A stretch of DNA of 32,000 nucleotides from Planctomycetales bacterium. Its GTDB lineage: Bacteria; 4484-113; JAFGCY01. Under the pieces are notes generated by a model. That model searched no databases and was not told the DNA's origin. It saw nothing but the letters and a program-made list of their open reading frames with translations. Positions 2,472-32,000 of this stretch are shown in pieces; position 1 is the first letter of the stretch, and every line of letters begins with the position of its first letter. Location of the stretch: positions 3,630,001 to 3,662,000 of the forward strand of contig CP060262.1 of assembly GCA_022646745.1 (NCBI GenBank), given 5' to 3'. Made by a program: the position numbers and the translations under genes.

Positions 2472-3626
2472 CTATTCGACCCAGCTCTTCCAGTAGTGCT
2501 TGTCCTCGATATCCAGGGCTGGCTTGGCAACCTTGAGCGGGCGGAATGTGTCAATCATCACCGCCTTCTCGTCCGTGTACTCCTTGCCGATGCTGCCCTC
2601 ATAGCGTCCGGGGTGCGGGCCGTGCGGGATGCCGTCCGGGTGCAGGGTCATGCTGCCCCACTCGATGCCCTTGCGGCTCATGAAGTCGGCGGAGAAGTAG
2701 TACAGCACCTCATCACTCATCACGTTTGAGTGGTAGTACGGTGCCGGGATCGCCTCCGGATGGAAGTCAAAGGGCCGCGGCGCGAAGTTGCAGACCACGA
2801 AGGCATCGCCCTGCAGGATCTGGTGGATCGGGGGCGGCTGGTGGATAGTGCCGGTGATCGGCTCGAAGTCATTGAAGTTGAACTTCCAGGGGAAGAAGAT
2901 CCCGTCCCAGCCCACGACGTCAATCGGATGGTGGTCAAGGATGAAGCGGTTCATGCCGCCGCGCTGGCGCACGCGCAGCTCGAATTCACCCTTCTCATCA
3001 CGCGGGTTGAGCTTCTCCGGACCGTGGATGTCACGCTCGGAGAAGGGCGCGCCCTCGATCAGCTGGCCGTATTCATTGCGGTAGCGCTTCGGGGTGCGCA
3101 GGTAGCTGTTGCTCTCAAGGATCAGCAGTTCGTTCTCCTTTGTGGAGAACTGCCAGCGGTGGATGATGCCCTGCGGGATGATCAGCTGGTCGTCCTGGCC
3201 GAAGCTTAAATCGCCCATCTGGGTCTCCAGCACGCCCTCACCCTTGGCAACGAAGACGTACTCATCCTGGCTGCCGTTGCGGTACCAGTAGTCATCGTTG
3301 ACATTCGGCTTGCTGTAGCAGATCGCGCAGTCATTGTTGAAGAAGATCGGCACGCGGTCCATCACCGGGCTGCCGGCGGCATGCAGCTGGGCCGTCATCA
3401 CATGCCGCATGCGCAGCATCGGATGGTCCTCCTCCTCGTAGACCCAGTTGCGCAGGTGTTCGGTGCGCAGCACGGCCGTCGGGGGGTGGATGTGGTAGAG
3501 CAGCGAGGCCGGGCCGGTGAAGCCGTAGTTGCCAATCAGGTGCTCCTGGTAAATGCCACCCTCAGCCTTGTGGTGCTGGATGTGGCGCTTCTTCGGAATG
3601 CTTCCCATTCTGTGATAGAAAGGCAT
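2472..3626 (-). CDS. hmgA: Homogentisate 1,2-dioxygenase (short, about 384 aa cupin type)
   Basis: N-terminus MPFYHRMGSIPKKRH..YQEHLIGNYGFTGP..LLYH and the cupin core LIIPQGIIHRW and HPDGIPHGPHPG resemble HGO. GAGGAG RBS before ATG 3626. Sits beside hppD and an FAH-family gene. Confidence 0.8.
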   Translation of the reverse strand: MPFYHRMGSIPKKRHIQHHKAEGGIYQEHLIGNYGFTGPASLLYHIHPPTAVLRTEHLRNWVYEEEDHPMLRMRHVMTAQLHAAGSPVMDRVPIFFNNDCAICYSKPNVNDDYWYRNGSQDEYVFVAKGEGVLETQMGDLSFGQDDQLIIPQGIIHRWQFSTKENELLILESNSYLRTPKRYRNEYGQLIEGAPFSERDIHGPEKLNPRDEKGEFELRVRQRGGMNRFILDHHPIDVVGWDGIFFPWKFNFNDFEPITGTIHQPPPIHQILQGDAFVVCNFAPRPFDFHPEAIPAPYYHSNVMSDEVLYYFSADFMSRKGIEWGSMTLHPDGIPHGPHPGRYEGSIGKEYTDEKAVMIDTFRPLKVAKPALDIEDKHYWKSWVE

Positions 3627-3665
3627 GTCTCTCCTCGCTATTGTGCTGTTGTCAGTTTGTCAGTG

Positions 3666-4445
3666 TCAGCCTGCGCTGGCAGCGGCTCCGGCGACCTTGT
3701 TGCTGATCTTGCCGAGGCCCTCGATCTCGAGATCGACGACGTCGCCACTCTTGATCCAGCCACCGGTGTTCTCCGGGCCAAGCTCCAGGATGCAGCCGGT
3801 GCCGACGGTACCGCTGCCGATCAGTTCGCCGGGATAGAGCGTCACGCCATTGGAGGCGCGCTCGATCATCTCGCCGAAGCTGAAGTGGATGCTGTTCCAG
3901 TTGCCACGGCTGATCTCCCTGCCGTTGACATGGCAGGTCATCTGCAGGTCGAAGCCCTTGCCGCTGCGCTTTGCCTCCAGCTCATCCGGAGTGACAAGCA
4001 CCGGGCCCAGCGTGGTGGCGAAGTCCTTGCCCTTGGCCGGACCGAGGTTCATCACCATCTCCGCCTTCTGAGCGTCGCGCAGGGACCAGTCGTTGATCAC
4101 GGTGTAGCCGAGGATGTACTGCTCGGCATCCTCCGCCTTGACGTTGCGGCACTCCCTGCCGATCACCGCCCCGACCTCCAGTTCGAAGTCCAGCCACTCA
4201 CCGGCGGAGGGGAACTGCAGGTCCTCACCGTCCAGCAGCAGGCTGTGCGAGTTGCTGAAATAGAACACGGCGATCTTGTACCAGTCAGGGATCATGTCAA
4301 CGCCGCGCCTGGCGCGGGCGGCCTTCACATGCTGCTCGAAGGCGTAGAAGTCGCGGAAGCTGCGGATCGGCAGGCGGCCGTCCGGGGTCTCGACGGCGAC
4401 CACGCCGCCTTCATTCGGGTTGATGCGTACGAAGTTGTATCTCAT
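3666..4445 (-). CDS. Fumarylacetoacetate hydrolase (FAH) family protein, short 259-aa form
   Basis: Blocks DFELEVGAVIG, GYTVINDWSLRD, GPAKGKDFATTLGP and GELIGSGTVGTG are typical of the FAH-domain fold. ATG 4445 lies 1 nt after the hppD stop (4447..4449), implying translational coupling. The longer 316-aa ORF start looks like an antisense-type extension. Confidence 0.8.
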   Translation of the reverse strand: MRYNFVRINPNEGGVVAVETPDGRLPIRSFRDFYAFEQHVKAARARRGVDMIPDWYKIAVFYFSNSHSLLLDGEDLQFPSAGEWLDFELEVGAVIGRECRNVKAEDAEQYILGYTVINDWSLRDAQKAEMVMNLGPAKGKDFATTLGPVLVTPDELEAKRSGKGFDLQMTCHVNGREISRGNWNSIHFSFGEMIERASNGVTLYPGELIGSGTVGTGCILELGPENTGGWIKSGDVVDLEIEGLGKISNKVAGAAASAG

Positions 4446-4446
4446 A

Positions 4447-5562
4447 TCAGAGGTTGCCCCTTCTCTCCTGCTCCTGCTCGATGGCCTCGAACAGCGCCTT
4501 GAAGTTACCCTTGCCAAAACCACGGCTGCCGCGGCGCTGGATGATCTCGAAGAACAGCGTCGGGCGGTCCTCCACCGGCTTCGTGAACAGCTGCAGCAGG
4601 TAGCCCTCGTCGTCACGGTCGATCAGCACGCGCAGTTCCTTCAGCACGTCCATTGGCTCCTTGATCTCCCCGATGCGCTCCGCGATGCCGTCGTAGTAGC
4701 TGCGGGGCACGTTGAGGAACTCCACGCCATTCTCGTAGAGCTTGGTCAGGGTCTCGATGATGTCGTCCGTCAGCAGGGCCACGTGCTGGGCACCGGCCCC
4801 CTCATAGAAGTCGATGTACTCCTCGATCTGGCTCTTCTTCTTGCCCTCGGCGGGCTCATTGATCGGGAACTTGATTGCGTATGTATTGTTGCTCATCACG
4901 ATGGACATCAGCGCGCTGTACTCAGTGGAAATGTCCTCGTCGTCAAAGGTGATGTAGCGGTGGAAGCCGAACACGTTCTCGTAGAACGCGGCCCACTCAT
5001 TCATGCGGCCCAGCTCAACGTTGCCAACGATGTGGTCGATGCGCAGGATGCCCGCGTCTCGCCCGGGGGCCTCGTTGACGGTGAATCCCGGCAGGAATGG
5101 CCCCTTGTAGTCGACGTGCTGGATCAGGCTGTGCACGGTGTCACCGTAGGTGCCGACAACAGCCCAGCGCACTGTGCCGTGCTCATCGGTCACGTCATGC
5201 GGCTCGACGATGCCCTTCGCTCCCTGGCTCGTGGCATAGGCGTAGGCCTTGTCGCAGTCGTCAACCTCGAAGGCGATGTCCTGCACACCGTCGCCATGCT
5301 TTGATAGGTGCTCGTTGATGCGGTGCCGTGAATTCAGAGGCGTCGTCAGCAGGAACACCGCATTGCCCTGGCGCAGGGCGTAGGATGTTGCCTCGCGGTT
5401 CTTCGTCTCGAGCCCGCTGTAGGCGAAGCGGCTGAAGCCGAAAGCGTTGCGGTAGTAGTAGTCAGCCTGCTTGGCGTTGCCCACCCAGAACTCGACGTGG
5501 TGCACCTGTTTCAGGCCGCAGGGGTTCTCGGTGCGTACCCTGTTCTCGCTAGTCACACTCAT
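4447..5562 (-). CDS. hppD: 4-hydroxyphenylpyruvate dioxygenase
   Basis: [98 protein letters not shown] are hallmark HPPD blocks. GGGAGG lies 6 nt upstream of ATG 5562. Confidence 0.92.
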
Positions 5563-5603
5563 GTAATGCCTCCCGTGACCGATGGGTCCTTGCATTTGAC
5601 ATG

Positions 5604-13314: not shown

Positions 13315-14979
13315 ATGAAGAGGTTTGCACTCTCCCTGCTGGCCTGCATGGTCCTTGGATGCTCCGTTGCCTGGGCGGATTCCGCCTATGACGACGTGTC
13401 CACCGACCACTGGGCCTACAACGCCCTGGATTACCTGACGCACCGTGGTGTGCTGGAAGGTTATCCTGACGGGTTCTTCAAGGGTGACCGTACGCTGACG
13501 CGTTACGAGTTCGCCCAGGCGATCGCCCGTCTGCTCGACACTGTTGGTGAGGGATCGCCCGAAGACATCAACATCATGGCCGAAACCCTTCGCGCGGAAT
13601 TCTCTGACCAGCTCGCCAGCCTTGGCGGGCGGGTTGATGCCCTGGGCAACCAGGTCAACGACATGAACTCGACCATCTCGGATCTTGAAGGTAGTGTGGC
13701 GGACAACACCAACCGGATCGGCGACCTCGAAGGCAAGGTCAAGGACCTCAAGCCCGGACCGGAGTGGAAGGGAGAGCTGCGCTACCGCTGGCAGTTCGAG
13801 GACTGGGCGGACCGCAACCGCTTCCGCCAGCGCATCCGCTTCAAGCTGGGCTACAGCAAGCAGATCAACGACTGCGTCAAGCTGGCCTGGCAGTTCCAGA
13901 CCCAGACCGGCAACGATGCCACCTCCGGCAACCATACACTTGGCAACCAGGGACGGACAGCGGACATCTTCCTGCACGAAGCCTATGTCAAGTACAGCCC
14001 CGCCTGGTTCGGCTATTACCAGGACTGCGAGAAGCCCAAGCCTAACTGCGGTGGCTGCGGTGGCTGCAACGAATGTCAGAGCTGCGCCAAGTGCGAAGAG
14101 CTGAAGTGCGAGTGCAAGAGCAAGCTGGACATCTATGCCGGTATCTTCCCGAGCATCCTCACGGATGAGCATGAGATGGTGCTGGATGGTGACGTGAACC
14201 TGCAGGGTCTCGGCTTCGTTTACCACTTCAACCAGGACTTCCAGCTGACCAGTGTCGCCAGTGTCTTCGTCGAGAAGAACGGCAGTGACTACTTCGATGA
14301 CGACACCTACTTCTTCGCCACGGAACTGCGCCATGACGATTTCCTGATTGACGGCCTCGACGCCTGGGTGGGCAGCTACGGCTGGAAGGAAGAGAACCAG
14401 CTGCTTGCGGACTACTTCACGGGCAACGGCCTTGTTCTGGCTGACAACAGCGTGTTCGATTTCAACGGTGACGGCACCGTCAACGGCCTCGACCGCTTCA
14501 ACAGCAACTTCAGCGTCTACAAGGCCGGCCTGCAGTACACCTGGGACTGCGCCTGGGACGACAAGCCGTTCAAGATCTTCGGTGAGTACATGCTGGCCTG
14601 CGACAGCGACGCGGAGGACAACATCTCCATCGTCAACCAGGGCCTCGCCTCCCCGATCATCTATGAGACCAGCGACGATACCGGCTGGGTCGCAGGTGCG
14701 CAGTGGGGAGACAAGCCCAAGGACTGCGGCGACTGGTTCACCTTTGCCCGCTACAAGGAGATCGGGGCCAACACCATCGTCTCCGGCCTGGGTGATTCCG
14801 ATACTGGTGGCGCAAACCGCAACAGCTTCGAGTGGCACTGGGCATACATCTGGGCCCCGAACTGCACGCTCGGTATCACCTACATCCTGCAGAAGATGCA
14901 CAACGCGTATGGATTCCAGATTCCCAGCGGCCAGGACGACCGCCAGATCGTGCAGGTGGACTGGGTGTTCAAGTTCTAG
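13315..14979 (+). CDS. SLH-domain outer-membrane porin (OmpM/Slp-like: SLH + coiled-coil stalk + beta-barrel) with a Cys-rich insertion
   Basis: Signal peptide ...CSVAWA|D. SLH motif DHWAYNALDYL..GVLEGYPDGFFKGDRTLTRYEFAQAIARLL. Heptad-like stretch LGGRVDALGNQVNDMNSTISDLEGSVADNTNRIGDLEGKVKDL. Then amphipathic beta-strand patterning ending ...VQVDWVFKF (C-terminal Phe). GTGAGG RBS. Confidence 0.85.
   Translation: MKRFALSLLACMVLGCSVAWADSAYDDVSTDHWAYNALDYLTHRGVLEGYPDGFFKGDRTLTRYEFAQAIARLLDTVGEGSPEDINIMAETLRAEFSDQLASLGGRVDALGNQVNDMNSTISDLEGSVADNTNRIGDLEGKVKDLKPGPEWKGELRYRWQFEDWADRNRFRQRIRFKLGYSKQINDCVKLAWQFQTQTGNDATSGNHTLGNQGRTADIFLHEAYVKYSPAWFGYYQDCEKPKPNCGGCGGCNECQSCAKCEELKCECKSKLDIYAGIFPSILTDEHEMVLDGDVNLQGLGFVYHFNQDFQLTSVASVFVEKNGSDYFDDDTYFFATELRHDDFLIDGLDAWVGSYGWKEENQLLADYFTGNGLVLADNSVFDFNGDGTVNGLDRFNSNFSVYKAGLQYTWDCAWDDKPFKIFGEYMLACDSDAEDNISIVNQGLASPIIYETSDDTGWVAGAQWGDKPKDCGDWFTFARYKEIGANTIVSGLGDSDTGGANRNSFEWHWAYIWAPNCTLGITYILQKMHNAYGFQIPSGQDDRQIVQVDWVFKF
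14047..14064 (+). repeat. Perfect tandem 9-bp duplication TGCGGTGGC x2 (encodes CGGCGG) inside the porin Cys run
   Basis: Read directly: 14047..14055 equals 14056..14064, followed by TGC. Confidence 0.9.
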
Positions 14980-15024
14980 GCATAGGGAGCAAATCCTTCA
15001 CGCAACAGAACGTGACATTAGATG

Positions 15025-15053
15025 AGGGCGGGTCCTAGTGACTCGCCCTTTTT
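15025..15053 (+). terminator. Rho-independent terminator after the SLH-porin gene
   Basis: AGGGCGGGTC / GACTCGCCCT forms a 10-bp stem (one G-U) with loop CTAGT, followed by TTTTT. Confidence 0.7.
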
Positions 15054-15286: not shown

Positions 15287-15338
15287 ATAAATGATCCACT
15301 CATTGGAGACCTGGGTGGCTTTTCGGCTAAGGAGGCCG

Positions 15339-17330
15339 ATGATGACAAGCAATGTTTCAACCGGGAGAGGAATTCTCCATCAGGCATTGGGAATCACAGC
15401 TGCCAGCCTCCTCGCGCTTGGCAGCTGCGCCAGCTCGCTTTCCGGCGGCGGGGGAAACCCCGATGACGGAGGCGGCGTAAACAAGGCTCCGGTGATCATC
15501 GGAAATACGATCGCTGCCAACAACCTCAGTCCTGAGACATCGCAGGTTGTGCAGTTCTCCGTATCCGCCAGTGATCCCGAAGGCAGTGCACTGACCTTCA
15601 GCTGGGATGACGGAAATGCCGCCGCCGGTACCTTCGACGGCACGGGCTCTTCCGTATTCTGGAGCACTGAGGAAGCCGGAACCTACACGATCTCCGTGAT
15701 CGCGTACGACCCGGAGCTGCTATCAGCCACTGCCAGCACTTCAACCACGGTGGCACAGGCTCCGGATCCGCCGGGACCAAACGATCCGCCGGTGTTCGAC
15801 CAGAACGGCATCCAGAAGGACGTCAGCTCCCCGGTCGCCGGACAGAAGATCATCTTCTCGGTAACCGCGTCTGACTCCGATGGCGACACGCTCAGCTTCG
15901 TCTGGCAGGATGACACCGGCCAGGACAACTTCTCCGACATCACCGTCGAGAACGGCACTTCCAAGGCCACTTGGTCTTATGACGAGGCCGGCAGCCATAC
16001 GATCACCGCAATTGCCAATGACGGCAAGGCCACCGGTACGTCAATGGTGAGCGCAGTCACAAGCCAGACCGCCACGGTGACCCTTGCGGCGATGCCGACG
16101 TCCTTCGACTTCAGCGGTGCGGAGCGTTGCGCCAACTGCCACTCCGATGTGTACGACCAGTGGGAGAACACCGGTCATGCCCACATCGAGGACACCATGC
16201 AGCAGATCGGCCGCGGCCGCCTTGAGAGCTGCCGTGAATGCCACACCGTCGGTTATGGCGAGGGTGGTTACATCAGTTACGACCTCACCCCGCAGTTTGC
16301 CAACGTCCAGTGCGAAAGCTGCCACGGCTCCGGCACCGGCCACCCGGCCAACGGTCCGCTGCCCGCATCCTTCGACCCGACCGACTCCTGTGGCCGTTGC
16401 CATACTGAGGAGCACCACCCGACATTCGAAGAGTGGCAGACCTCCGGACATGCTAACTTTGCCCTTGATGAGCACAACGCAACCGGTTCAAGCTGCGTCA
16501 AGTGCCACAACGGTGAATGGTTTGTCCGGATCCAGATCAACGGCGAGGATCCCCCTGCAGAAGACCTGGCTGAAGGCACCCATGTGACCTGCGCCACCTG
16601 CCATGATCCGCACGGCAACGGATTCGAGAACCAGCTGCGAGTCGATCCTACAGCAACGATGATCATCCCCTTTGATGACACCGAAGTTAATGCCGGTAAG
16701 GCCAACACCTGCCTTGCCTGCCACAATGGACGCCGTAACCGCGGTGACATGGAGAACACGATTGCCAAGGGTGGTCGTGGCTTCCATGCCAACAGCCAGG
16801 GCCCGATGATCTTCGGCGTTGGCGGTTTCGAATTCGATGGCTACGAGTATGACAAGTCGCATCCGCACAACTCCTGGAATGAGGAGAAGTGCATCACCTG
16901 TCACATGTACAGCAAGGAATTCGAGGACTTCGAGAACCCGGCCATCGTCGGCCACAGCTTCGCCCCGAAGATTGAATCCTGCAACGTCTGCCACACATTC
17001 GCCACCAGCGAAGAAATGGAAGCCTACAAGGAGGAATTCATCAACGGTACGCTGGCCATGCTGCTCGAGTTCGAGACTATCTGGCCTGCTGAGTGGAAGA
17101 CTGAGGATGCCGGTGTGTTCGACCTGAACAACAAGCCCTCCAGCTCTGATCCACCTAGCACCGACGGCCCGCCGCTGAATGACCCGATCGGCGACCAGTA
17201 TCGCCAGGCTTGGTGGAACTACGAGTACGTCCGAGAGGACGCGAGCAAGGGTGTCCACAACCCGGCTTACTCCCGCGGCCTGCTGCAGTCCGCCATCAAC
17301 AAGGTCAACGAACTCAACGCTCTGCCGTAA
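15339..17330 (+). CDS. Lipoprotein nonaheme c-type cytochrome with two N-terminal PKD/cadherin-like Ig repeats
   Basis: AAGGAGG lies 5 nt upstream of ATG 15339. Lipobox LLALGS|C is followed by a Gly-rich linker. Two about 95-aa repeats (VVQFSVSASDPEGSALTFSWDD / KIIFSVTASDSDGDTLSFVWQDD). Nine CXXCH motifs (CANCH, CRECH, CESCH, CGRCH, CVKCH, CATCH, CLACH, CITCH, CNVCH). Confidence 0.9.
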   Translation: MMTSNVSTGRGILHQALGITAASLLALGSCASSLSGGGGNPDDGGGVNKAPVIIGNTIAANNLSPETSQVVQFSVSASDPEGSALTFSWDDGNAAAGTFDGTGSSVFWSTEEAGTYTISVIAYDPELLSATASTSTTVAQAPDPPGPNDPPVFDQNGIQKDVSSPVAGQKIIFSVTASDSDGDTLSFVWQDDTGQDNFSDITVENGTSKATWSYDEAGSHTITAIANDGKATGTSMVSAVTSQTATVTLAAMPTSFDFSGAERCANCHSDVYDQWENTGHAHIEDTMQQIGRGRLESCRECHTVGYGEGGYISYDLTPQFANVQCESCHGSGTGHPANGPLPASFDPTDSCGRCHTEEHHPTFEEWQTSGHANFALDEHNATGSSCVKCHNGEWFVRIQINGEDPPAEDLAEGTHVTCATCHDPHGNGFENQLRVDPTATMIIPFDDTEVNAGKANTCLACHNGRRNRGDMENTIAKGGRGFHANSQGPMIFGVGGFEFDGYEYDKSHPHNSWNEEKCITCHMYSKEFEDFENPAIVGHSFAPKIESCNVCHTFATSEEMEAYKEEFINGTLAMLLEFETIWPAEWKTEDAGVFDLNNKPSSSDPPSTDGPPLNDPIGDQYRQAWWNYEYVREDASKGVHNPAYSRGLLQSAINKVNELNALP

Positions 17331-17348
17331 CAGCAGTACACCAAGAGA

Positions 17349-17377
17349 GGGCGCCCGCAATGGGCGCCCTTTTTTTT
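17349..17377 (+). terminator. Rho-independent terminator
   Basis: GGGCGCCC-GCAAT-GGGCGCCC perfect 8-bp GC stem followed by T8. Confidence 0.85.
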
Positions 17378-17533
17378 GCCTGGATCCCCTTGTATACAGG
17401 CTTGATGAAGTCTGACTAAAGACACAATTCCGATGCCCGATATCATAGATATATAGTAGGTTTGTGATAAACTTGGAGCCGGAGAACACTGTTTTCCACA
17501 GGGTAGAGGAAGAGAGAATATTGGAGGATCAGC

Positions 17534-18742
17534 ATGGCTGCGAGAAGGTCATTGATGACCATCGTGCTGATAGCCGTCGGAGTGCTGGGCTGGACTTACG
17601 TAGGACAGGCGCAGTTCTTTGATTCCCTTGAGGGAATGGAAGCTCCGGAGGATGTCAGCGGTGTTGACTGTGCAATGTGTCATGGAAGCGCGGCTCAGGA
17701 AGTCACCTTCCCGCATGCTCCGGCCTTCGAGGGCAAGTGCGACACGTGCCACCAGACAACTGGTGTCGGGGGCCATGGCGGGCTCGTCAGTGAGACCCGC
17801 TCACTGTGCCTCAATTGCCACCAGGACAAGTCAGAGCACTACCCCGCACTCACCTGCTGGACGAGCAATTGCCACAGCGACATGCACGGCAGCAACCTCG
17901 ATCCCTTCCTCAACCCCAGCCGCCAGGAGGACTACCCCGGCTTTGCCGCCTCCACGGAAGGTGCGCAGTACGTCGGTACTGAGACCTGCCTGAGCTGCCA
18001 CCAGGGCCATCGCCGGGAATGGCAGAAGTCCATGCACAGCCTGACCGACCACGGTACCCGCCCGATCAGCGAGCGTGGCTGCGAAAGCTGCCACGGACCG
18101 GGCAGCAACCACTGGGGCCGCCGCGCCGGCATCGGTGTGTTCAGCATGGCAAGCTCCAAGGAAATTGACGACACCTGCCTTGAGTGCCACAAGTCCGACA
18201 CCTACGTACCGGACTACAAGGGCACCCGTCACGTGAAGGAAGGCATGTCCTGCATCGAGTGCCATGACCCGCACATGCAGACCAACAAGCACAACCTGCG
18301 CAAGACCCCCAATTCAATGTGCCTGACCTGCCACGAGTCCACCCGCGTGGACTTCGCCAAGTTCAGCCACCACCCGCTTGACAACGAAGACCCGCGCATG
18401 GGCCTGATGTGCATTGATTGCCACAATCCGCACGGCGGCGAGGGGCACGAGATGCTCAAGCAGGTGAAGGACGACCTCTGCTTCGAATGCCACGCTGACA
18501 AGCAGGGCCCGTTCATCTTCGAGCACGCGGGATACGACCCGGCCATGGGCAACGGCTGCTTCACCTGCCACAGTGCACACGGCAGCAGCAACCCTGACCT
18601 GCTGAACTTCTCCGGACGGGGTACCTGCATGGAATGCCATACGGACCGTGCCAACCACTTCCCCGCACAGAACTGCTGGACCTCGGGATGCCATTCCGAC
18701 CACCACGGTTCCAACACTGATTTCTTCTTCTTCGGGAACTAG
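17534..18742 (+). CDS. Periplasmic multiheme c-type cytochrome, 14 predicted heme sites (12 CXXCH + 2 CX4CH)
   Basis: GGAGGA RBS. Signal peptide ...YVGQA|QFF. Motifs CAMCH, CDTCH, CLNCH, CWTSNCH, CLSCH, CESCH, CLECH, CIECH, CLTCH, CIDCH, CFECH, CFTCH, CMECH, CWTSGCH. The CH..HGSN endings recall DmsE/MtrA-type cytochromes. Confidence 0.9.
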   Translation: MAARRSLMTIVLIAVGVLGWTYVGQAQFFDSLEGMEAPEDVSGVDCAMCHGSAAQEVTFPHAPAFEGKCDTCHQTTGVGGHGGLVSETRSLCLNCHQDKSEHYPALTCWTSNCHSDMHGSNLDPFLNPSRQEDYPGFAASTEGAQYVGTETCLSCHQGHRREWQKSMHSLTDHGTRPISERGCESCHGPGSNHWGRRAGIGVFSMASSKEIDDTCLECHKSDTYVPDYKGTRHVKEGMSCIECHDPHMQTNKHNLRKTPNSMCLTCHESTRVDFAKFSHHPLDNEDPRMGLMCIDCHNPHGGEGHEMLKQVKDDLCFECHADKQGPFIFEHAGYDPAMGNGCFTCHSAHGSSNPDLLNFSGRGTCMECHTDRANHFPAQNCWTSGCHSDHHGSNTDFFFFGN

Positions 18743-18755
18743 GAGGTAGCAAGCG

Positions 18756-20462
18756 ATGCGCAACGGACTGTTAACTGCCCTCCTCGTCTTCTCCATGCTT
18801 GTCATGCTCAGCGGCGTGGCCCTCGCGGGCGATGCCTGCACCGGCTGCAACGCTGGCTGCGCTGACTGCTGTGAGTTCTGGGCCGAAGACGGTCTTGGCA
18901 ACTATGTCGAGATCGGCGGCACCAGCACGGAAGTGAATGACAACGAGGACTCCTTCAACCAGTACGGGCTCTACCCGGAGGACTGGTACACCAACGGCCG
19001 CTACAACAGCGTCGACATGGGCTGCGTGCTCAACCGCTTCGAGGCCCGCTGGCAGGATGTCAGCAGCGACAGCGGACGCGGCTGGGGCCGCCTGACGAGC
19101 TGGCCGCTCGTGCTGCAGGGTGACAGCACCCTGATCAGCGGCCGCGCCTGGAACGCCTTCGGCGCGGAGCCGGCACTGGTGCCCTACGACTGGTCACATG
19201 ACCAGTACGGCCTGCGGATCCACCACCGTGAGCTTGACAACATGGCGCTCAACTACGAGCGCATCGAGCTCAACCATGACACGGCCAGCCCGCTGCATGA
19301 CCTCAAGGTGGAGCGCCTCGGCTACCGCTGGAACCTGGACATCATCGGCATCGACACGATGGCCCAGGTCACCCAGCGTGCCACCACGATCGACACCACC
19401 CTGCCCGGCGCCTCCGGCAGCATTGACCATACCCGCGTCAAGCTGGACGCCAGGCTGAGCGATGAGCTGAAGGCCTACGGCCGGATCAACTACAAGCAGT
19501 ACCAGTACGATGACCAGCCGGATCCCGAGTTCTCCAGCGCGGACCTGACACTGGGCATGCGCTACGACCCGAGCTGCGACTGGTCCTTCAACGCGGAGTA
19601 CAGCAGCAGCGAGGCCGCCGATGACAACATCGTCAGCAGCCACGTTCAGAGCTCCAGCGAGTACGGCTTCTCGGCGGCCTGGTACCCCGGCTGTGGCAAC
19701 AGCTACGAAGCCGGCTACAAGCTGCGGCAGGTGGACTACGCCAAGCTGGACATGCAGGACAGCTCAGTGTTCAACCTGCTGCGTGGCTCCTCCGTGGTGA
19801 CACCGGCCCAGGTCGCTCCCGCGGTGACGATCCTCGCGCCTGAGTACGACACTGTCTGGTTCGACATGAAGCAGAACCTCTCGGACCGACTGAAGTTCCG
19901 TACGCACATCGACTACGAGTCGGGCAGTACCCCGGGCACTGAGCTCGTCAGTGTCGGCAGCACCAGCCTGTTCTTCGACAAGCAGCTGTCCCGCACCCAC
20001 GGCCTGTCCTGGACGGTGGACAATCACAACTCCGTTGACTTCAACATGTACGGCCAGGAATCCCGCAATGGTGGCCGTGACAGCCAGACCAACCTGACCT
20101 ATGCCGAGGGAGTCTGGATGCACCGCATCGACAGCTGCAGCCAGTTCGCTCTGTCCCTGCGTGACAGCCGCTCTGAGCTCGATATGCCGGGCATTGATGA
20201 CGAGTACAGCACCGACGACAAGACCTACGCCGCCACCTACGGGCAGCAGCTTGAGGACCATGACTACTCGCTGAACTTCGCCATGAGCGACGGCAGCGGG
20301 GCTGAGAACTACACCCAGACCAGTGCCGGGGCTGAGGTCCGCTTCAAGCGCCTCGGGCCGCTGGGCCTGCGCCTGGACTGGTACCGCAGGCTGTATGACA
20401 ACTACCCGGGCCTTGAATCAGATGCAGTCTCAGTTGCGGTAAATTACAGGATTAGCTTCTGA
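18756..20462 (+). CDS. Outer-membrane beta-barrel protein, candidate cytochrome-sheathing porin (MtrB/PioB-like role), with N-terminal Cys cluster
   Basis: The AGGAGG RBS overlaps the stop of the upstream cytochrome, and ATG lies 13 nt after that stop. Signal peptide ...GVALA|GD. CTGCNAGCADCC follows directly after cleavage. Alternating hydrophobic beta-strand pattern throughout, Tyr/Asp/Ser/Asn-rich loops, and a C-terminal ...VAVNYRISF. Confidence 0.75.
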   Translation: MRNGLLTALLVFSMLVMLSGVALAGDACTGCNAGCADCCEFWAEDGLGNYVEIGGTSTEVNDNEDSFNQYGLYPEDWYTNGRYNSVDMGCVLNRFEARWQDVSSDSGRGWGRLTSWPLVLQGDSTLISGRAWNAFGAEPALVPYDWSHDQYGLRIHHRELDNMALNYERIELNHDTASPLHDLKVERLGYRWNLDIIGIDTMAQVTQRATTIDTTLPGASGSIDHTRVKLDARLSDELKAYGRINYKQYQYDDQPDPEFSSADLTLGMRYDPSCDWSFNAEYSSSEAADDNIVSSHVQSSSEYGFSAAWYPGCGNSYEAGYKLRQVDYAKLDMQDSSVFNLLRGSSVVTPAQVAPAVTILAPEYDTVWFDMKQNLSDRLKFRTHIDYESGSTPGTELVSVGSTSLFFDKQLSRTHGLSWTVDNHNSVDFNMYGQESRNGGRDSQTNLTYAEGVWMHRIDSCSQFALSLRDSRSELDMPGIDDEYSTDDKTYAATYGQQLEDHDYSLNFAMSDGSGAENYTQTSAGAEVRFKRLGPLGLRLDWYRRLYDNYPGLESDAVSVAVNYRISF

Positions 20463-20518
20463 TCTGGGGTATTATCAAGTAAGGCAGACATATCGAATAT
20501 CTCATGGAGCCTAATAGG

Positions 20519-20538
20519 CTGGAATCCAAGGATTCCAG
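20519..20538. promoter_or_regulatory. Inverted repeat CTGGAATCC-AA-GGATTCCAG (9-bp arms, 2-nt spacer)
   Basis: Checked pairwise. It lies between the barrel stop (20462) and the tetraheme ATG (20568). The spacer is too short for a full RNA hairpin, so a dimeric-protein site or a short stem-loop is possible. Confidence 0.35.
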
Positions 20539-20567
20539 GAGAGTTGCAAGCACCAAGGAGGTGTAGC

Positions 20568-21077
20568 ATGTTCAGGAAGTATGGCTGGGTAATCGCTGTG
20601 TTCATCGTGGCGATGTTCGCCTGGGGCGCCTTCAGCGCAGAGCAGGCAAGCGGTGCCGATGCCAACGAGTATGTCGGTGACAACGAGAAGAAGTGCGGCA
20701 TGTGCCACAAGGAGCAGGTCGCAGCATGGAAGAAGTGGCCGATGGCCAAGACCTGGGACACACTGCAGGCCAGCAAGGACAAGAAGGACAGCTGCATCCC
20801 CTGCCATGTGACCGGCTTTGGCAAGCCCGGCGGCTTCGTCAGCATCGAGAAGACCCCCAAGCTCGTCAACGTGCAGTGCGAGGCCTGCCATGGCCCCGCC
20901 AAGGACCACCTTGCCGCCCCGCTCAACGATGTTGAGAAGAAGCGCAACACGATGACCAAGCCGACGGAGGCGAACTGCAAGACCTGCCACAACAAGGACT
21001 CCCCGCACTACAAGGAGTTCAAGTACGCTGATGCCGTCAAGGCACTGGCGGATCACAAGCCCAAGCCGAAGAAGTAA
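20568..21077 (+). CDS. Tetraheme c-type cytochrome (c554-like module)
   Basis: AAGGAGG lies 7 nt upstream of ATG 20568. N-terminal hydrophobic segment WVIAVFIVAMFAWGAFSA. Motifs CGMCH, CIPCH, CEACH, CKTCH. Lys-rich tail. Confidence 0.88.
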   Translation: MFRKYGWVIAVFIVAMFAWGAFSAEQASGADANEYVGDNEKKCGMCHKEQVAAWKKWPMAKTWDTLQASKDKKDSCIPCHVTGFGKPGGFVSIEKTPKLVNVQCEACHGPAKDHLAAPLNDVEKKRNTMTKPTEANCKTCHNKDSPHYKEFKYADAVKALADHKPKPKK

Positions 21078-21112
21078 GGGCATGCCCGCAGGGCATACAG
21101 ACAGACCATCCT

Positions 21113-21146
21113 ACGGGCGTCCCTCCATGGGGCGCCCGTTTCATTT
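21113..21146 (+). terminator. Rho-independent terminator after the tetraheme gene
   Basis: ACGGGCGTCCC-TCCAT-GGGGCGCCCGT forms an 11-bp stem (one G-U) followed by TTCATTT. Confidence 0.65.
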
Positions 21147-21177
21147 GTAATCTGCCTCAGCAGAGGCAAGAGTGACC

Positions 21178-22332
21178 ATGTCCAAGCAGAGTTCAACTGA
21201 AAAGCAGTCCCGCTGCCCGGTGTGCCGGGCGAGCAACCAGCCCGCCGCGCGCTTCTGCGAGCAGTGCGGTGCCGTGATGAATGCCGGCCCGGGTGGCCAG
21301 TCCGCTCCGGCTGCCAACCCGCTGCGCATCGTGATGCCGATCGTGATCGTGCTGGCGCTCGTCGGCGGCATGGTGATGCTGCAGCGCCAGCCCAAGCAGG
21401 GTGCTGATGCCATGAACCAGGCACTCGGCGGCAACCCGCACAGCCTGCCCGGCGCGGATGGCAATGCCGGCGGCGATGTCAATTCGATGGTCGAGCAGTT
21501 CAAGGCGCGGCTGGACAAGGACCCGCTGGACACCGCGGCACTGAACGAGCTGTACACTATCTACAGCAGCATCAGTGAAGCTGACAAGGTCACGCCCTAT
21601 ACGCAGGCGGCCGTCACAGCCTGGATGAAGCAGCCGGCGGACAGCCGGGAGGCCAAGCTGATTGCAGATGTGGCCGCACTGTCGATGCAGAACGGTGACC
21701 TGCTGGGGGCGGCTGCCTCGTTTGAGGCCTACAGCCAGGCCGAGCCGGAGAACTACTCCGTGATGGCAACCGTCGGCGACCTGCACCTGCAGCTCAGCCG
21801 TGTGGAGGCGGCAGGCAGCGAAGTGGCCGGCCGCGAGGCGAAGAAGGCCGAGACCTGGTACCAGCGCTTCCTTGACAACGCCAGCCCGGAAAGCCACCCT
21901 GAGCTGTACTGGGACGTGCTCGTCAACCAGGCCAGCGCGATGATGGCCCAGATGCCCGCCGAAGGTGCTGACTTCAGCCAGGTGCTGGCCAACCTCGAGC
22001 GCGCCACGACGGAGAACCCGGATTACTGGCTGGGCTGGCACAGCTACGGCATGGCCCTCAAGGCCGCCGGCAGGAACGATGATGCGATCGCGGCACTGGC
22101 CGCTGCCAAGCAGCACGGCAGCCCGCGTGAGACCTGGGAGTCCGAGCAGCAGCTGGCGATGCTGGAGAACCGCGAGCCTGACCCGGGTGACTTCGACCCG
22201 ACCGACCCGCATGCGGGGATGGACATGAGCGGAGCTGGGGGTGGTGGAAACACACCGCACGGCATGCCCAACCCGCACCGCCAGGGTGACGAAGTACCGG
22301 AGAACCCGCACAACATCGGCACCCAGGGCTAG
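21178..22332 (+). CDS. Zinc-ribbon / single-TM / TPR-like periplasmic domain protein with His/Met/Pro-rich tail
   Basis: CPVC-x12-CEQC zinc ribbon. TM segment LRIVMPIVIVLALVGGMVMLQ. Helical-repeat region resembling TPR. Tail PHAGMDMSGAGGGGNTPHGMPNPH..NPHN. High third-position GC on the plus frame. GTG 21172 is an alternative start. Confidence 0.75.
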   Translation: MSKQSSTEKQSRCPVCRASNQPAARFCEQCGAVMNAGPGGQSAPAANPLRIVMPIVIVLALVGGMVMLQRQPKQGADAMNQALGGNPHSLPGADGNAGGDVNSMVEQFKARLDKDPLDTAALNELYTIYSSISEADKVTPYTQAAVTAWMKQPADSREAKLIADVAALSMQNGDLLGAAASFEAYSQAEPENYSVMATVGDLHLQLSRVEAAGSEVAGREAKKAETWYQRFLDNASPESHPELYWDVLVNQASAMMAQMPAEGADFSQVLANLERATTENPDYWLGWHSYGMALKAAGRNDDAIAALAAAKQHGSPRETWESEQQLAMLENREPDPGDFDPTDPHAGMDMSGAGGGGNTPHGMPNPHRQGDEVPENPHNIGTQG

Positions 22333-22451
22333 CAGTCGCAGACAGCAGCATGCGTTTAACTCCCCCTTCCCGCTCAGCGATTAACTGATTGAGGAAGAGC
22401 AATCCCGCATGGGTGCCCGGAACCCCCGTGCGAGGGAAACTGGAGAAAGAC

Positions 22452-23777
22452 ATGCGGCTTATGCTGACAACGCTTGCTGCGATCCTGCTGCTTTGCAATG
22501 CGGCGCGAGCGGATGCGCCAGAGCTGGACTTTGTGGACCCTACCGATCAGGCATACAAATTTCTAGGCTCACTATTGCAGGCAGGTTACTTGCCGGATTA
22601 CCCGTCCAATTACCTTGAAGATCACCCTGTACTTACTCGCTATGAATTCGCCCAGGCGACGATCTGTTGTTTGGACAACTTCATACATCAAGATGATTCC
22701 AATGCAGAAATTCTTGCGGAGTCACTACGTGCAAACTTCAATACCGAGTTGATCAACTGGACGGGATTGAGCTCCCTGTACGGCCCGGTAGCTCCTCTTA
22801 GTGAAACGGAGATGCCCGACAAACGGCCAGAGATTGGCGCGCGCCGTGCTGATCAGCTTTTCCCCTCTGATCACTGGGCTAACCAGGCTATCGGAATTCT
22901 CGCCGACAACTGTCGAGCCAACACACGAACTAAGTTAAAGGACAAAATGCTGCTGCAACCCTGGACTTACTCCGAGACTGCAGCTGCAGTAATAGATTTG
23001 GCAAACAATCTGTCAGCAGACTCCGACCCGGCCCTGATTCCGCTGGTCGACTCCCTTGTGTGCTTATTACAGCCGGACATCAGATATCTGTTATCGGTCA
23101 GAGCAGACAAAAATCTGTACTACACAGACTGGGCAATAAGGCACTCAGTGAGTCTTGAGGAATGCCGCAAGCATGATCCATATTTTGACCTGCCGCCAGA
23201 GCCTGTCTGGATGTTGAGCCAGGAAATTCCGGTGGACAGTTTCCTATATCCCTTGCTTGATTACGCACAGAATGCGGGATTCCTGCCAAACTTCGTTCCG
23301 GGTTACTGGCAGAATCGCAACGGATCGCAAACATTTGAGGAATTGTTTCTGGCAAATGACATCCTGAAACTGACAATACACGAGGACGGTTCAGCCATTG
23401 ATAGGCTGGTTTCAAACGTTCTAGTTGAAGCGCAAAGGAATCTGGAAAGCTCTGAAAATTTCGATGACCGAAGCAACGTATGTTTTATAGGAGACATGCG
23501 TAAGTATCGCAATAGTGGAATAACTGATCTGTGGGACTCCTGGCCCGGCGAAGCCCTGTTAAAACTGCAAGAGCGTGGCTACCTTACGAATCTTCCGGTG
23601 AGCAGCTATCACTCGGTCACGGGGAAAACGCGGCTGGAAATGTCAATTGTAGTCGGTAAACTGCTCAGTGAGCTCAACGCTGATTCACCTTTGGACATCA
23701 AAATTTTGGGAGAAACCCTCAGGCGCGAGTACAGCGACCTTCTGCCGGACTGGGCTCCGCTTTCGGAGCAAGATTAG
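22452..23777 (+). CDS. Secreted protein built from about four degenerate SLH-like units, with no barrel
   Basis: Signal peptide MRLMLTTLAAILLLCNAARA. Units contain ...LTRYEFAQATI..., SDHWANQAIGIL..., ...LEMSIVVGKLL.... Trailing segments AESLRANFNTEL and GETLRREYSDLL parallel the porin AETLRAEFSDQL. Low GC. Confidence 0.7.
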   Translation: MRLMLTTLAAILLLCNAARADAPELDFVDPTDQAYKFLGSLLQAGYLPDYPSNYLEDHPVLTRYEFAQATICCLDNFIHQDDSNAEILAESLRANFNTELINWTGLSSLYGPVAPLSETEMPDKRPEIGARRADQLFPSDHWANQAIGILADNCRANTRTKLKDKMLLQPWTYSETAAAVIDLANNLSADSDPALIPLVDSLVCLLQPDIRYLLSVRADKNLYYTDWAIRHSVSLEECRKHDPYFDLPPEPVWMLSQEIPVDSFLYPLLDYAQNAGFLPNFVPGYWQNRNGSQTFEELFLANDILKLTIHEDGSAIDRLVSNVLVEAQRNLESSENFDDRSNVCFIGDMRKYRNSGITDLWDSWPGEALLKLQERGYLTNLPVSSYHSVTGKTRLEMSIVVGKLLSELNADSPLDIKILGETLRREYSDLLPDWAPLSEQD

Positions 23778-23802: not shown

Positions 23803-24480
23803 ATGATTGACATGAAACAATTTATCTCAAAAGTTTCTTTTCTTCTCTTTGCTGCGATCCTGCTGCTTGGCAATGCCGCCATCGCCGGCAGTGCCGATGA
23901 CCAAGTAGGCAGGGATCATTGGGCTTACGCCCTATTCGACTACTTGGTCAACGACCCGAACGTCGAATGGAAAGTTGTCCAACCAGGTGATTTCTTCAGC
24001 AGGGAAGACCGATTGCTGACAAGGTATGAATTTGCTTCTGCAGCTCTAGTCTTTGGATATTCTATTTTTGAAAATGGCTCTGACTCACAAAAGATGCTTC
24101 TGCACATCTGCATGAATGAATTCAAAGACCAAATTGTCAGTATGGGGCACACAGACCATTTCGTCAGCCTGGAGATATCCAACCTGGGCATGAACAACGA
24201 GATCCAGGGATCAATGCGTACCGGCGCATCCGCCGATGTCCCCCCCGAGCACTGGGCATACGACGCGGTAGAGTTCTTCATTGACAGTGGAACCCTGGAA
24301 GGGTACCCGGCTGGCTTCTACGACCGCAGCAGGATCCTGACCCCCTATGAATTCGCCCAGGCAATCGCTCGACTGTTGGACATTTTGAGTGATCAGGAAA
24401 ATCCATATCCATATGAAGTACAGATTGCCGAGTGCCTGCGAGTCGAATTCAGTGACCAGCTGGATTCAATCAGCAGCTAG
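23803..24480 (+). CDS. Secreted two-SLH-domain protein, with no barrel
   Basis: Signal peptide ...FAAILLLGNAAIAG. DHWAYALFDYL...LTRYEFASAAL and EHWAYDAVEFF..GTLEGYPAGFYDRSRILTPYEFAQAIARLLD plus AECLRVEFSDQL are close to the N-terminus of the 13315 porin. Confidence 0.8.
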   Translation: MIDMKQFISKVSFLLFAAILLLGNAAIAGSADDQVGRDHWAYALFDYLVNDPNVEWKVVQPGDFFSREDRLLTRYEFASAALVFGYSIFENGSDSQKMLLHICMNEFKDQIVSMGHTDHFVSLEISNLGMNNEIQGSMRTGASADVPPEHWAYDAVEFFIDSGTLEGYPAGFYDRSRILTPYEFAQAIARLLDILSDQENPYPYEVQIAECLRVEFSDQLDSISS

Positions 24481-30507: not shown

Positions 30508-30933
30508 TCAGCGGCTGTAACGGGCGTATGCCGTATCAAGCTGCATGTCGCGCTTGATGTCACTGATGTTCTGCTCGAAGCCGAAGGGATCACCATTCGG
30601 CAGGCCATTGAAGCGGTCTGAGATTCCGACATGCAGGGACAGGTTGTCGCTCAGCTGGTTGAAGTAGTTGATCGCGAAACGCAGGCGCTGGTCGAAATCA
30701 CCCTCCACACCGTTGTCGGTATAGCGCATCTCATAACCGATCGCACCATAAACCGCAGTGCGCGGCTCGGGGCAGTAATCCGCCAGGTTTGCTTCAAGTT
30801 GGTCACACATCCTGGAAGTCGCCTTGACCTGGTCAGCGATGCATTCGCAGCTGTCATCATTGGCGGAAGCGAAAACCGGCGCAAGCGCCAGGGAGCAGCA
30901 GAGCAGTGCGGTGGTTAATGCCTTCATGTCCAT
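30508..30933 (-). CDS. Secreted 141-aa protein resembling only the first beta-strands of the SLH-porin family (possible porin remnant)
   Basis: Signal peptide ...LAPVFASA. FDQRLRFAINYFNQLSDNLSLHVGI and MQLDTAYARYSR align by eye with FRQRIRFKLGYSKQINDCVKLAWQF and ADIFLHEAYVKYSP of the 13315 porin. Confidence 0.6.
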   Translation of the reverse strand: MDMKALTTALLCCSLALAPVFASANDDSCECIADQVKATSRMCDQLEANLADYCPEPRTAVYGAIGYEMRYTDNGVEGDFDQRLRFAINYFNQLSDNLSLHVGISDRFNGLPNGDPFGFEQNISDIKRDMQLDTAYARYSR

Positions 30934-31017: not shown

Positions 31018-31803
31018 TCAGTAGCTCAACTCGAAGTCCACATCATGGGTCAGGTCTACATGGGTGATCCTGAATCCCTTGCCGCCATCCATCTGGCTGT
31101 ATTTGATGTCACCCCTGCTGCCATCAAATGAGTATGCCTTGCCCGTCATGGGATTGATGGTCGTGCTGGACAGGGGTCCGAAACCCTCTTTCACGAGTTG
31201 CTGGATGCTATCCGGATAGTGTCCATTGACATCCAGGAATGCAATCGCTGCATAGCCAAGCTGGCGGATCTGTGCGAACTGGACCAGTTGAGCTTCGTTT
31301 CCCAGCCATTCACGGATTATCTCCTGCTGGCCAGCATTCAGGTCCTGCTCCTTCATCATTTCCGCGAACCGGTCAGCATAGCTGCCCTTGTTCGTGACAA
31401 GCGGACCGTCAACGTCTTCGGTTGATCCGTTCCAGGAGTTGTACAGGCGCAGGTCAGTGATATCTCCTTCAGCCGCAGTGCTTTCTATGTAGATGTCACC
31501 TGAGAAATCAATGCTGGCATCATCCGGATTGATTCTCTCCATTCCGTAACCCAGCAGTACATTGTCAAAAATGCCCTTCTTCGTCACCTCTGACCAGGAT
31601 GCGGGATTGCGGCCGAATGCCAGCTGGAAACCCTCGAGCGCGGCCCGAACCTGGGATTCAGCAATGTCTATCGCCCCACCACGAGTCTTCAGGCCGGGAT
31701 AATCACTTGCATACGTTGTCTCAGCTGACACTGCATTGCCTGCACTGGCAATCAGCATGGCTGCGGCAATTGCCACACCGCTGAGTTGAATCGAGGTCTT
31801 CAT
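31018..31803 (-). CDS. Secreted hypothetical protein
   Basis: AAGGAG lies 8 nt upstream of ATG 31803. Signal peptide MKTSIQLSGVAIAAAMLIASAGNAVSA. No family recognised. The upstream 61 codons of the track ORF lack coding character. Confidence 0.6.
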   Translation of the reverse strand: MKTSIQLSGVAIAAAMLIASAGNAVSAETTYASDYPGLKTRGGAIDIAESQVRAALEGFQLAFGRNPASWSEVTKKGIFDNVLLGYGMERINPDDASIDFSGDIYIESTAAEGDITDLRLYNSWNGSTEDVDGPLVTNKGSYADRFAEMMKEQDLNAGQQEIIREWLGNEAQLVQFAQIRQLGYAAIAFLDVNGHYPDSIQQLVKEGFGPLSSTTINPMTGKAYSFDGSRGDIKYSQMDGGKGFRITHVDLTHDVDFELSY

Positions 31804-32000
31804 AATCCATTCTCCTTCCGGGGCGCAGCAGCAATTGCGACCGAAACCCTGTATCAGCATTCCGGACGCATATGGTGGTGGATAGTTCGGAATGAAATGA
31901 CAATGGAAAGAAAAAGCCCGGCCATTGTGACCGGGCTCATTTCGTTCAAACAAGTTGTGCTGCCTGATCAGAACAGGAAGCTCCACTCCACAACGTAGTA

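Follow-up and report, generated by a model that had tools for sequence, protein, structure and literature searches.

Outer-membrane beta-barrels are normally almost free of cysteine. Why, then, does a porin of a Planctomycetales bacterium carry nine cysteines within 30 residues, and what might they be doing there? The gene in question (13315–14979, forward strand) lies in a stretch of 32,000 nucleotides from assembly GCA_022646745.1 (contig CP060262.1, positions 3,630,001 to 3,662,000), which is referred to below as the window and to which all coordinates of the porin locus refer. A preliminary description of the window, prepared from the letters alone, had drawn attention to these cysteines as an insertion in an SLH porin. 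We find that the feature is a hypervariable, cysteine-rich and very probably periplasmic turn that has grown from a conserved two-cysteine turn. The exception to the rule is a whole porin family, which bears its cysteines on one face of the barrel and in which a single turn has become a cysteine knob of variable length.

The cysteine run

Translation of the open reading frame gives a product of 554 residues, in which codons 238–267 (14026–14115) read CEKPKPNCGGCGGCNECQSCAKCEELKCEC. Cysteines occupy positions 238, 245, 248, 251, 254, 257, 260, 265 and 267, and the six between 245 and 260 fall at every third residue, forming five consecutive CxxC intervals. The dense run that first attracted attention is thus real, although its description needs two corrections: there are nine cysteines rather than ten, and the six evenly spaced cysteines make five CxxC intervals rather than six. 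The string originally quoted also took in D237. Other window genes have a cysteine frequency of 1.07%; with this as background, at least nine cysteines would occur in a given 30 residues with a probability of approximately 2e-11. The segment 238–267, hereafter the knob, contains no Phe, Trp, Tyr or His. The perfect 9-bp tandem repeat noted earlier was found both by inspection and by Tandem Repeats Finder: TGCGGTGGC occurs twice at 14047–14064, encoding the peptide CGGCGG, and the program reported a repeat of period 9 and 2.4 copies at 14046–14067 (score 44).

An assembly artefact can be ruled out as the source of this sequence. A residue-for-residue identical protein is on record (UNM08094.1/MCB1220494.1, P0263 in our collection) on a 4.11-Mb contig, the orthologues of three further assemblies (L001–L003, 91–93% identical) have an eight-cysteine version, and the 80%-identity cluster includes two metagenome proteins with eight (P0002) and nine (P0267) cysteines. 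Haem attachment by the porin is also ruled out, as a motif scan found neither CxxCH nor CxxxxCH anywhere in the protein. When searched alone against Pfam and PDB sequences the knob returned no matches, which says little because low complexity probably defeats the search filters.

An OmpM-type porin

The protein that carries the knob is an OmpM-type porin consisting of an SLH domain, a coiled-coil stalk and a 16-strand barrel, which bears out its initial identification as an SLH porin. The Pfam SLH domain (PF00395) matched residues 25–67 (E 1.8e-8, 34.7 bits against a cutoff of 20.8) and Porin_5 (PF16930), which its homologues bear as an annotation, matched with an E value of 1.1e-9 (37.9 bits against a cutoff of 22) in an alignment that covers only residues 165–229. 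A profile of 90 relatives, compared with the PDB, matched Veillonella parvula OmpM1 over the SLH domain (E 1e-33), the stalk and strands 1–4, and its stalk region also aligned with solved trimeric coiled coils. The AlphaFold2 model (mean pLDDT 84.6) comprises a signal peptide, the SLH domain, a helix at residues 97–143 and 16 beta strands; its top Foldseek match was OmpM1 (8bys, E 2e-17, TM 0.72), with OmpF-type porins next, and the model of a relative with two cysteines in the turn (P0010) likewise has 16 strands. A search of a representative library returned mostly SLH-domain matches and little was gained from it.

OmpM is a trimeric 16-strand porin that anchors the outer membrane to peptidoglycan by means of its coiled-coil stalk and SLH domain; the stalk of OmpM1 touches, with its end, the periplasmic end of strand 2 in a neighbouring protomer, and there is a hinge at that junction (PMC10628300). 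OmpM, represented here by the V. parvula protein OmpM1 (PDB 8BYS/8BYM), serves the diderm Terrabacteria as outer-membrane tether and general porin. The window protein shares with OmpM1 an N-terminal SLH domain, a coiled-coil stalk (trimeric in OmpM1) and a C-terminal 16-strand barrel, but the barrels are just 12–14% identical and only the window protein has nine cysteines in one turn and four more on the periplasmic rim (Table 1). Homologues from Veillonella and Selenomonas have 0–4 cysteines and no dense run, and the words cysteine and disulfide are absent from the OmpM paper (PMC10628300). Cyanobacterial SLH porins (NF033921 'iron uptake porin', SomB type; Porin_5) also place an SLH domain before a barrel, and the NCBIfam model NF033921 matches residues 24–205 with a score of 66, below its cutoff of 100 and driven by the N-terminal part. 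Distant Porin_5/SLH relatives (26–30% identity) contain 0–2 cysteines.

Position of the knob in the barrel

In the AlphaFold2 model, strand 4 (residues 218–238) is kinked at SPAWFG and is followed first by the cysteine stretch and then by strand 5 (residues 265–278). The cluster is therefore located between strands 4 and 5, in agreement with the early loop or turn originally proposed for it. Within the stretch, residues 243–261 have pLDDT values below 50. As the stalk is periplasmic, strand 1 begins in the periplasm, and the connection that follows the even-numbered strand 4 is consequently a periplasmic turn, here designated T2. The loop-length pattern of the model agrees with this assignment: the other turns on the knob's side are 2–9 residues long, versus 11–41 residues for the opposite loops, bar the two-residue L1. 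In the model of P0010, T2 is an eight-residue turn, TDENCKEC, with a pLDDT of about 85.

Strand parity, loop lengths and homology together indicate that the knob very probably sits on periplasmic turn T2. The preliminary description had left the choice between the periplasmic and the external face to structure prediction, and parity and family statistics (see below) speak against the external face. T2 is two strands beyond strand 2, which the stalk contacts in OmpM1, and on the same side of the barrel. There is also good support for a short hairpin, made up of T2 with strands 4 and 5, that projects beneath the barrel on the side from which the stalk exits.

One-sided distribution of cysteine

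A protein search recovered 87 close relatives (41–93% identity), and the 83 full-length ones form the basis of all alignment counts given here. Across these 83 members, the predicted extracellular loops hold 4 cysteines in 12,695 residues (0.03%), while the periplasmic turns other than T2 hold 110 in 2,247 (4.9%) and T2 itself holds 259 in 1,130 (22.9%). Cysteines within strands are mostly found at the periplasmic ends. This asymmetry provides independent support for the barrel topology and makes the knob the extreme form of a family-wide habit. Taken with strand parity, these statistics point to exposure of cysteine on the periplasmic face of the barrel. The sole outer-side cysteine noted in the window protein is C429, where strand 11 reaches the outer side. 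The column of window residue 144, which lies at the end of the stalk nearest the barrel, is cysteine in 11 of the 83 relatives, including P0004 (...DCLKPGPEW), which has 15 cysteines; this would place an extra thiol right at the stalk–barrel junction.

The number of cysteines in the mature protein is odd in 42 members and even in 41. It follows that in approximately half of the family at least one thiol has no partner inside the chain, and a closed intramolecular ladder of disulfides, which was considered as a family rule, cannot be general. Co-occurrence of cysteine columns (e.g., 354 with 412, and 346/347 with 354) was also considered as a guide to disulfide partners, but it was confounded by phylogeny and was not used.

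Origin and evolution of the turn

T2 is 3–53 residues long (median 4), and nearly all other segments of the protein are length-invariant. Conservation in the barrel is highest in the flanks of this variable turn: strand 4 (AYVKYSPSWFGYY) has a column entropy of 0.85, the lowest among barrel segments, and strand 5 (PKLDIYAGIFPN) one of 1.08. Exactly two T2 cysteines, typically arranged as D-C-x-x-C, are found in 49 of the 83 relatives, with 0–1 in a further 12 and 4–15 in the remaining 22. In a neighbour-joining tree computed without T2, the two-cysteine state is basal and widespread, and expansions occur in at least three clades. Alignment and tree give good support to the reading that the knob arose when a conserved two-cysteine turn expanded in particular lineages. 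The insertion that had been proposed does exist as extra length, but not as a foreign insert, since the two-cysteine turn is already present in those 49 relatives.

All three paralogues of the window lineage are expanded (8–9, 11–12 and 6 cysteines) and differ in sequence, while the other genomes of the group have two-cysteine paralogues only. SLH porins of other phyla (37 loci from Negativicutes, Atribacterota, Armatimonadota and others) contain 0–5 cysteines and no dense runs, as had been anticipated in the statement that OmpM/Slp-type SLH porins are not cysteine-rich. No description of a cysteine-rich T2 turn was found in literature searches. The family represents a natural series of 0, 1, 2 and 4 to 15 cysteines on one scaffold.

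Evolution over a shorter range was followed in four orthologues, namely the window gene and those of L001–L003 (88–93% DNA identity). Codon-pair differences within the knob comprise 29 synonymous and 6 non-synonymous changes, a non-synonymous fraction of 0.17 compared with 0.28 for the whole gene, and all eight shared knob cysteines are kept. Judged by these substitutions, the knob is under purifying selection among close orthologues and is constrained, rather than being a neutral spacer. Over the 1.66 kb of the gene the four sequences differ by a single indel, a 9-bp unit (14077–14085) encoding Q255-S256-C257, which the window alone possesses. In both lineages in which the unit comes and goes (the second being that of P0267 and P0002; Table 1), its presence or absence goes together with the choice between Glu and Asp at position 262, which suggests one of two histories: recombination has exchanged two alleles, or the indel has occurred more than once. 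When the window is compared with the closest genome, HKST-UBA01 (L002), the porin also stands out as the gene that has diverged most, with 92.8% protein identity where most neighbours have 95–99.5%; its 33 substitutions are scattered across strands and loops.

The perfect 9-mer, by contrast with that unit, does not behave as the slippage-prone element that had been suggested. The CGGCGG peptide keeps its two copies in all four genes, whereas the DNA copies have acquired synonymous differences in L001 and L002 and are identical again in L003 (TGCGGCGGC). Two copies throughout, with synonymous drift of the DNA, give no sign of slippage. Ongoing slippage of the perfect 9-mer was accordingly rejected, on the grounds that its perfection at the DNA level is not conserved, that the Tandem Repeats Finder score is only 44 and that the paralogue in L005 lacks a tandem repeat. 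The other 9-bp unit, 12 bp downstream, is nonetheless present or absent between alleles. The turn would appear to change its length by steps of C-x-x units, with selection holding the cysteines while the spacer residues drift.

Possible functions of the knob

We tentatively favour the view that the knob acts as a periplasmic thiol/disulfide patch which locks or cross-links the tether at the stalk–barrel junction, a view to which strand parity, the one-sided distribution of cysteine, the stalk contact in OmpM1 and the precedent of the chlamydial protein MOMP all point. The knob and the other periplasm-facing cysteines of the family would together make up this patch, on the trimer's inner face. 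Disulfides could link cysteines of one knob, join one protomer to another, or connect the porin to further envelope proteins that bear cysteines, and might stiffen or lock the flexible stalk–barrel junction. The outer-membrane tether could thereby be knit into a covalent network, as is thought for the periplasmic cysteines of MOMP. Indirect hints of such bonds between proteins are the odd cysteine counts of 42 of the 83 members and the N-terminal cysteine clusters of further exported proteins encoded nearby.

MOMP, a trimeric barrel, is unusual in that it contains cysteines, eight in all. Five of them are periplasmic and include a CxxCxxxC motif in a flexible loop and a CxC motif in a tight turn; the cysteine-rich periplasmic region is partly disordered, and its cysteines are expected to link molecules to one another by disulfides within the cross-linked outer membrane complex (PMC13254160). 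In both cases cysteine is found on the periplasmic face of an outer-membrane barrel, as predicted from models for the porin. The two proteins are nonetheless non-homologous: MOMP has 10 strands and neither an SLH domain nor a stalk, and Foldseek and PDB profile searches with the porin gave OmpM, OmpF-type porins and AlgE, with no MOMP among the matches listed. MOMP has also been reported to be a non-porin in its elementary-body form (PMC13254160). Its host is an obligate intracellular pathogen, and its number of cysteines is fixed, unlike the hypervariable number in the porin family.

Several points weigh against a thiol/disulfide patch. The AlphaFold2 model gives the knob itself pLDDT values below 50, and its place relative to the three-fold axis is presumed by analogy with the architecture of OmpM and OmpF. 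The mechanism, including the disulfides, their partners and their redox state, is entirely inferred. The ancestral cysteine pair differs in spacing among relatives (CxC, CxxC, CxxxC and CxxxxC), which argues against a precise redox-active CxxC site. Finally, a knob with 30% cysteine and no aromatic residues is an equally good fit to a metallothionein-like metal site.

Such a metal-thiolate site, the main rival of the patch, is somewhat unlikely overall. Reduced knob cysteines would bind soft metals (Cu, Zn, Cd or Fe) where the channel opens into the periplasm, buffering or capturing incoming metals. The knob has the composition of a metallothionein (9 of 30 residues Cys, no aromatics, CxC and CxxC spacing), its spacers are rich in Gly, Ser, Lys, Asp and Glu, and its cysteine positions are kept while these spacers drift. 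Odd cysteine numbers are tolerated, the knob is poorly ordered in a model that has no ligand, and the source of the genome is saline activated sludge (PMC8495973). Like metallothioneins and the substrates of MNIO enzymes (bufferins, TIGR04222 tails), the knob is a short, low-complexity, periplasm-exposed segment with approximately 25–30% cysteine and Gly/Ser spacers; unlike them, it is an internal turn of a 554-residue barrel protein, neither a C-terminal tail nor a small protein in solution, and it has no profile match, nor any sequence match in Pfam or the PDB when searched alone. The ancestral state, moreover, has just two cysteines of variable spacing, and Pfam scans of open reading frames of the window found no metal-resistance genes flanking the porin. 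Periplasmic copper sites usually consist of Met and His, since free thiols become oxidised there, which also counts against this explanation.

A purely structural intramolecular disulfide knot, which would stiffen the longer periplasmic hairpin with no cross-linking or ligand role, is unlikely. One disulfide could clamp the ancestral pair, which lies in an eight-residue turn at the tip of the hairpin, T2 counts are even in 60 of the 83 members, and purifying selection on the knob would be in keeping with such a role. However, the number of cysteines in expanded knobs, the window's own included, is often odd (5, 7, 9 or 15), which a strict intramolecular ladder would appear to fit poorly. The number and spacing of the cysteines also shift freely between clades, unlike those of conserved knot scaffolds, and a knot would leave the periplasmic-rim position of the family's other cysteines unexplained.

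It is quite improbable that the knob is merely a tolerated low-complexity expansion with little or no function, produced by slippage of TGC-containing 9-bp units in a permissive turn. T2 is indeed the main indel hotspot of the protein, a perfect 9-bp duplication is present, alleles differ by a one-unit 9-bp indel, and a few relatives are down to 0–1 cysteine. Against this, the lowered non-synonymous fraction in the knob reflects purifying selection, all three paralogues of the lineage are expanded with different sequences, and independent clades have converged on cysteine-rich turns with different spacers. The DNA repeats, for their part, are mostly degenerate, and missing altogether as a tandem repeat from the L005 paralogue.

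The last explanation is that an MNIO enzyme converts knob cysteines to thiooxazole or oxazolone-thioamide groups before Sec export, creating a copper-binding collar at the porin's periplasmic mouth. Three related genomes (L004, L005 and L079) encode a BufB-like MNIO directly downstream of the porin paralogue with 12–15 cysteines. The operon there consists of genes for a nucleotidyltransferase, a zinc-ribbon membrane protein with a C-terminal CSSCSSCGGGGCGGGCGGGCGGCG tail, the BufB/HvfB-like MNIO (NF050167, E 5e-61, but below the family cutoff) and a partner protein; the tailed membrane protein is TIGR04222-like but without a profile match. Bufferin precursors, like the porin, have Sec signal peptides. 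Cys/Gly/Ser tails have been proposed as periplasm-exposed MNIO substrates (PMC12452194), and the operon thus already holds a candidate substrate of its own. Strong terminators after the paralogue (L005 and L079) rule out a single operon with the porin paralogue and leave MNIO modification as just a lead; the adjacency is confined to closely related genomes, and none of the window's open reading frames that were scanned against Pfam matched an MNIO. As we also know of no MNIO that modifies a 554-residue barrel protein, this explanation is a long shot.

If the thiols do cross-link, as the favoured patch would have it, the family would be a free-living counterpart of the disulfide-bonded chlamydial outer membrane, built on the OmpM tether, and would provide a second, covalent means of outer-membrane stabilisation in bacteria without Lpp, Pal or OmpA. 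Metal binding or enzymatic modification would instead place metal handling directly on the main diffusion channel, and modification by an MNIO would be the first known for an integral outer-membrane barrel.

Table 1. Coordinates of the porin, its parts and neighbouring genes. Positions are those of the window unless another locus is named.
Feature	Position	Strand	Basis or remarks
Porin gene, 554 aa (UNM08094.1/MCB1220494.1)	13315..14979	+	Open reading frame, Pfam, Foldseek, exact match to P0263
Signal peptide, residues 1-21, ending AWA	13315..13377	+	Predicted from hydrophobic N-terminus before conserved A-x-A / SAYDDV boundary in family alignment
SLH cell-wall binding domain, residues 25-67	13387..13515	+	PF00395; OmpM1 profile alignment
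Coiled-coil stalk, residues 83-145	13561..13749	+	AlphaFold2 helices 83-95 and 97-143; profile match to OmpM1 stalk
16-strand beta-barrel, residues 152-554	13768..14976	+	AlphaFold2, pLDDT mostly >90; same strands in two-cysteine relative; Foldseek OmpM1 and OmpF-type porins
C187, periplasmic turn T1	13873..13875	+	Cys in 8/83 relatives at this column, all in expanded clade
Kinked strand 4, IFLHEAYVKYSPAWFGYYQD, leading into knob	13966..14025	+	AlphaFold2 strands 218-227 and 234-238; aligns with OmpM1 'DRAYVDHK'
Cysteine-rich knob, turn T2, residues 238-267, nine Cys	14026..14115	+	Sequence, pLDDT <50 at 243-261, family alignment, codon differences
Tandem duplication, TGCGGTGGC twice (CGGCGG)	14047..14064	+	Sequence, Tandem Repeats Finder
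9-bp unit CAGAGCTGC (Q255 S256 C257)	14077..14085	+	Absent from L001-L003; present in P0267, absent in P0002
C260, first of ancestral pair	14092..14094	+	Cys in 70/83 full-length relatives
C267, second of ancestral pair	14113..14115	+	Cys in 75/83 full-length relatives
Strand 5, KSKLDIYAGIF, return strand of hairpin	14116..14148	+	AlphaFold2 strands 265-269 and 271-278
C412, periplasmic end of strand 10	14548..14550	+	Cys in 72/83 relatives
C471, periplasmic turn T6	14725..14727	+	Cys at columns 470/471 in 45/83 relatives
C517, periplasmic start of strand 15	14863..14865	+	Cys in 21/83 relatives
Terminator-like hairpin and T-run 3' of porin gene	15024..15050	+	11-pair stem, 7 G-C pairs
PKD/Ig-bearing cytochrome, 9 haem motifs	15291-17330	+	
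Cytochrome, 12 haem motifs	17534-18742	+	
568-aa barrel	18756-20462	+	
Tetrahaem cytochrome, 4 CxxCH	~20568-21077	+	
Zinc-ribbon/TPR protein	21172-22332	+	
MNIO operon downstream of 12-15-Cys paralogue	L005 12486-14525; L004 12509-13237; L079 11844-14539		

Genomic context

The genes that follow the porin form a porin-cytochrome-type module (15291–22332, forward strand), kept together as a block in L081 and L082. The functional tie between knob and cytochromes that the preliminary description had implied finds no support. A terminator stands between them, the more distant L081 and L082 have the module (MHC1-MHC2-barrel-tetrahaem-TPR) without a porin upstream, JAFGCY01, one of the module-bearing genomes, has a two-cysteine porin (L009), and the 6- and 12-cysteine paralogues are located elsewhere. 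The cytochrome cluster beside the porin is an independent module. The order aminotransferase, porin, MHC1, MHC2, barrel, TPR is kept in L001–L003.

The barrel within this module begins with a cysteine cluster, as had been noticed: residues 24–38, the mature N-terminus, read GDACTGCNAGCADCC and include five cysteines. The motif C-x-x-C-x3-C-x2-CC or a variant of it is found in all seven homologue clusters (50–99% identity), each of which retains the first CxxC and at least two later cysteines. This motif is a feature of the second barrel family's own. Cysteine-rich barrels are thus a theme of the locus in the descriptive sense, but not as one system, the two genes being separate. The motif recalls the N-terminal CxxC of MtrB.

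N-terminal cysteine clusters are found in nearby exported proteins, namely this second barrel and a 141-residue protein encoded at 30508–30933 (reverse strand). The latter consists of a signal peptide, a helix with four cysteines (DDSCECIADQVKATSRMCDQLEANLADYC) and approximately four strands resembling strands 1–4 of the porin, and it ends in DTAYARYSR, at the point where porin strand 4 enters the cysteine turn. It has no Pfam match and is conserved in L008 (98%) and L012 (85%). It could be one subunit of a small barrel made of several chains, or else a fragment of a porin that has been retained.

The six-cysteine porin paralogue (P0276, UNM08111.1) is expected, by comparison with L008, just past position 32000 on the reverse strand, immediately upstream of a 322-residue open reading frame at 31018–31986. 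Two further exported proteins (22389–23777 and 23803–24480, forward strand) contain repeated SLH-like segments (HWAY..., LTRYEFAQA...) with approximately 35% identity to the porin N-terminus in tblastn and no Pfam match even at an E value of 10. Finally, a set of genes for tyrosine/homogentisate breakdown at 2472–5595 (reverse strand) encodes a homogentisate dioxygenase-like protein, a fumarylacetoacetate hydrolase and a 4-hydroxyphenylpyruvate dioxygenase-like protein; the oxygen-dependent enzymes among them suggest that the organism meets oxygen.

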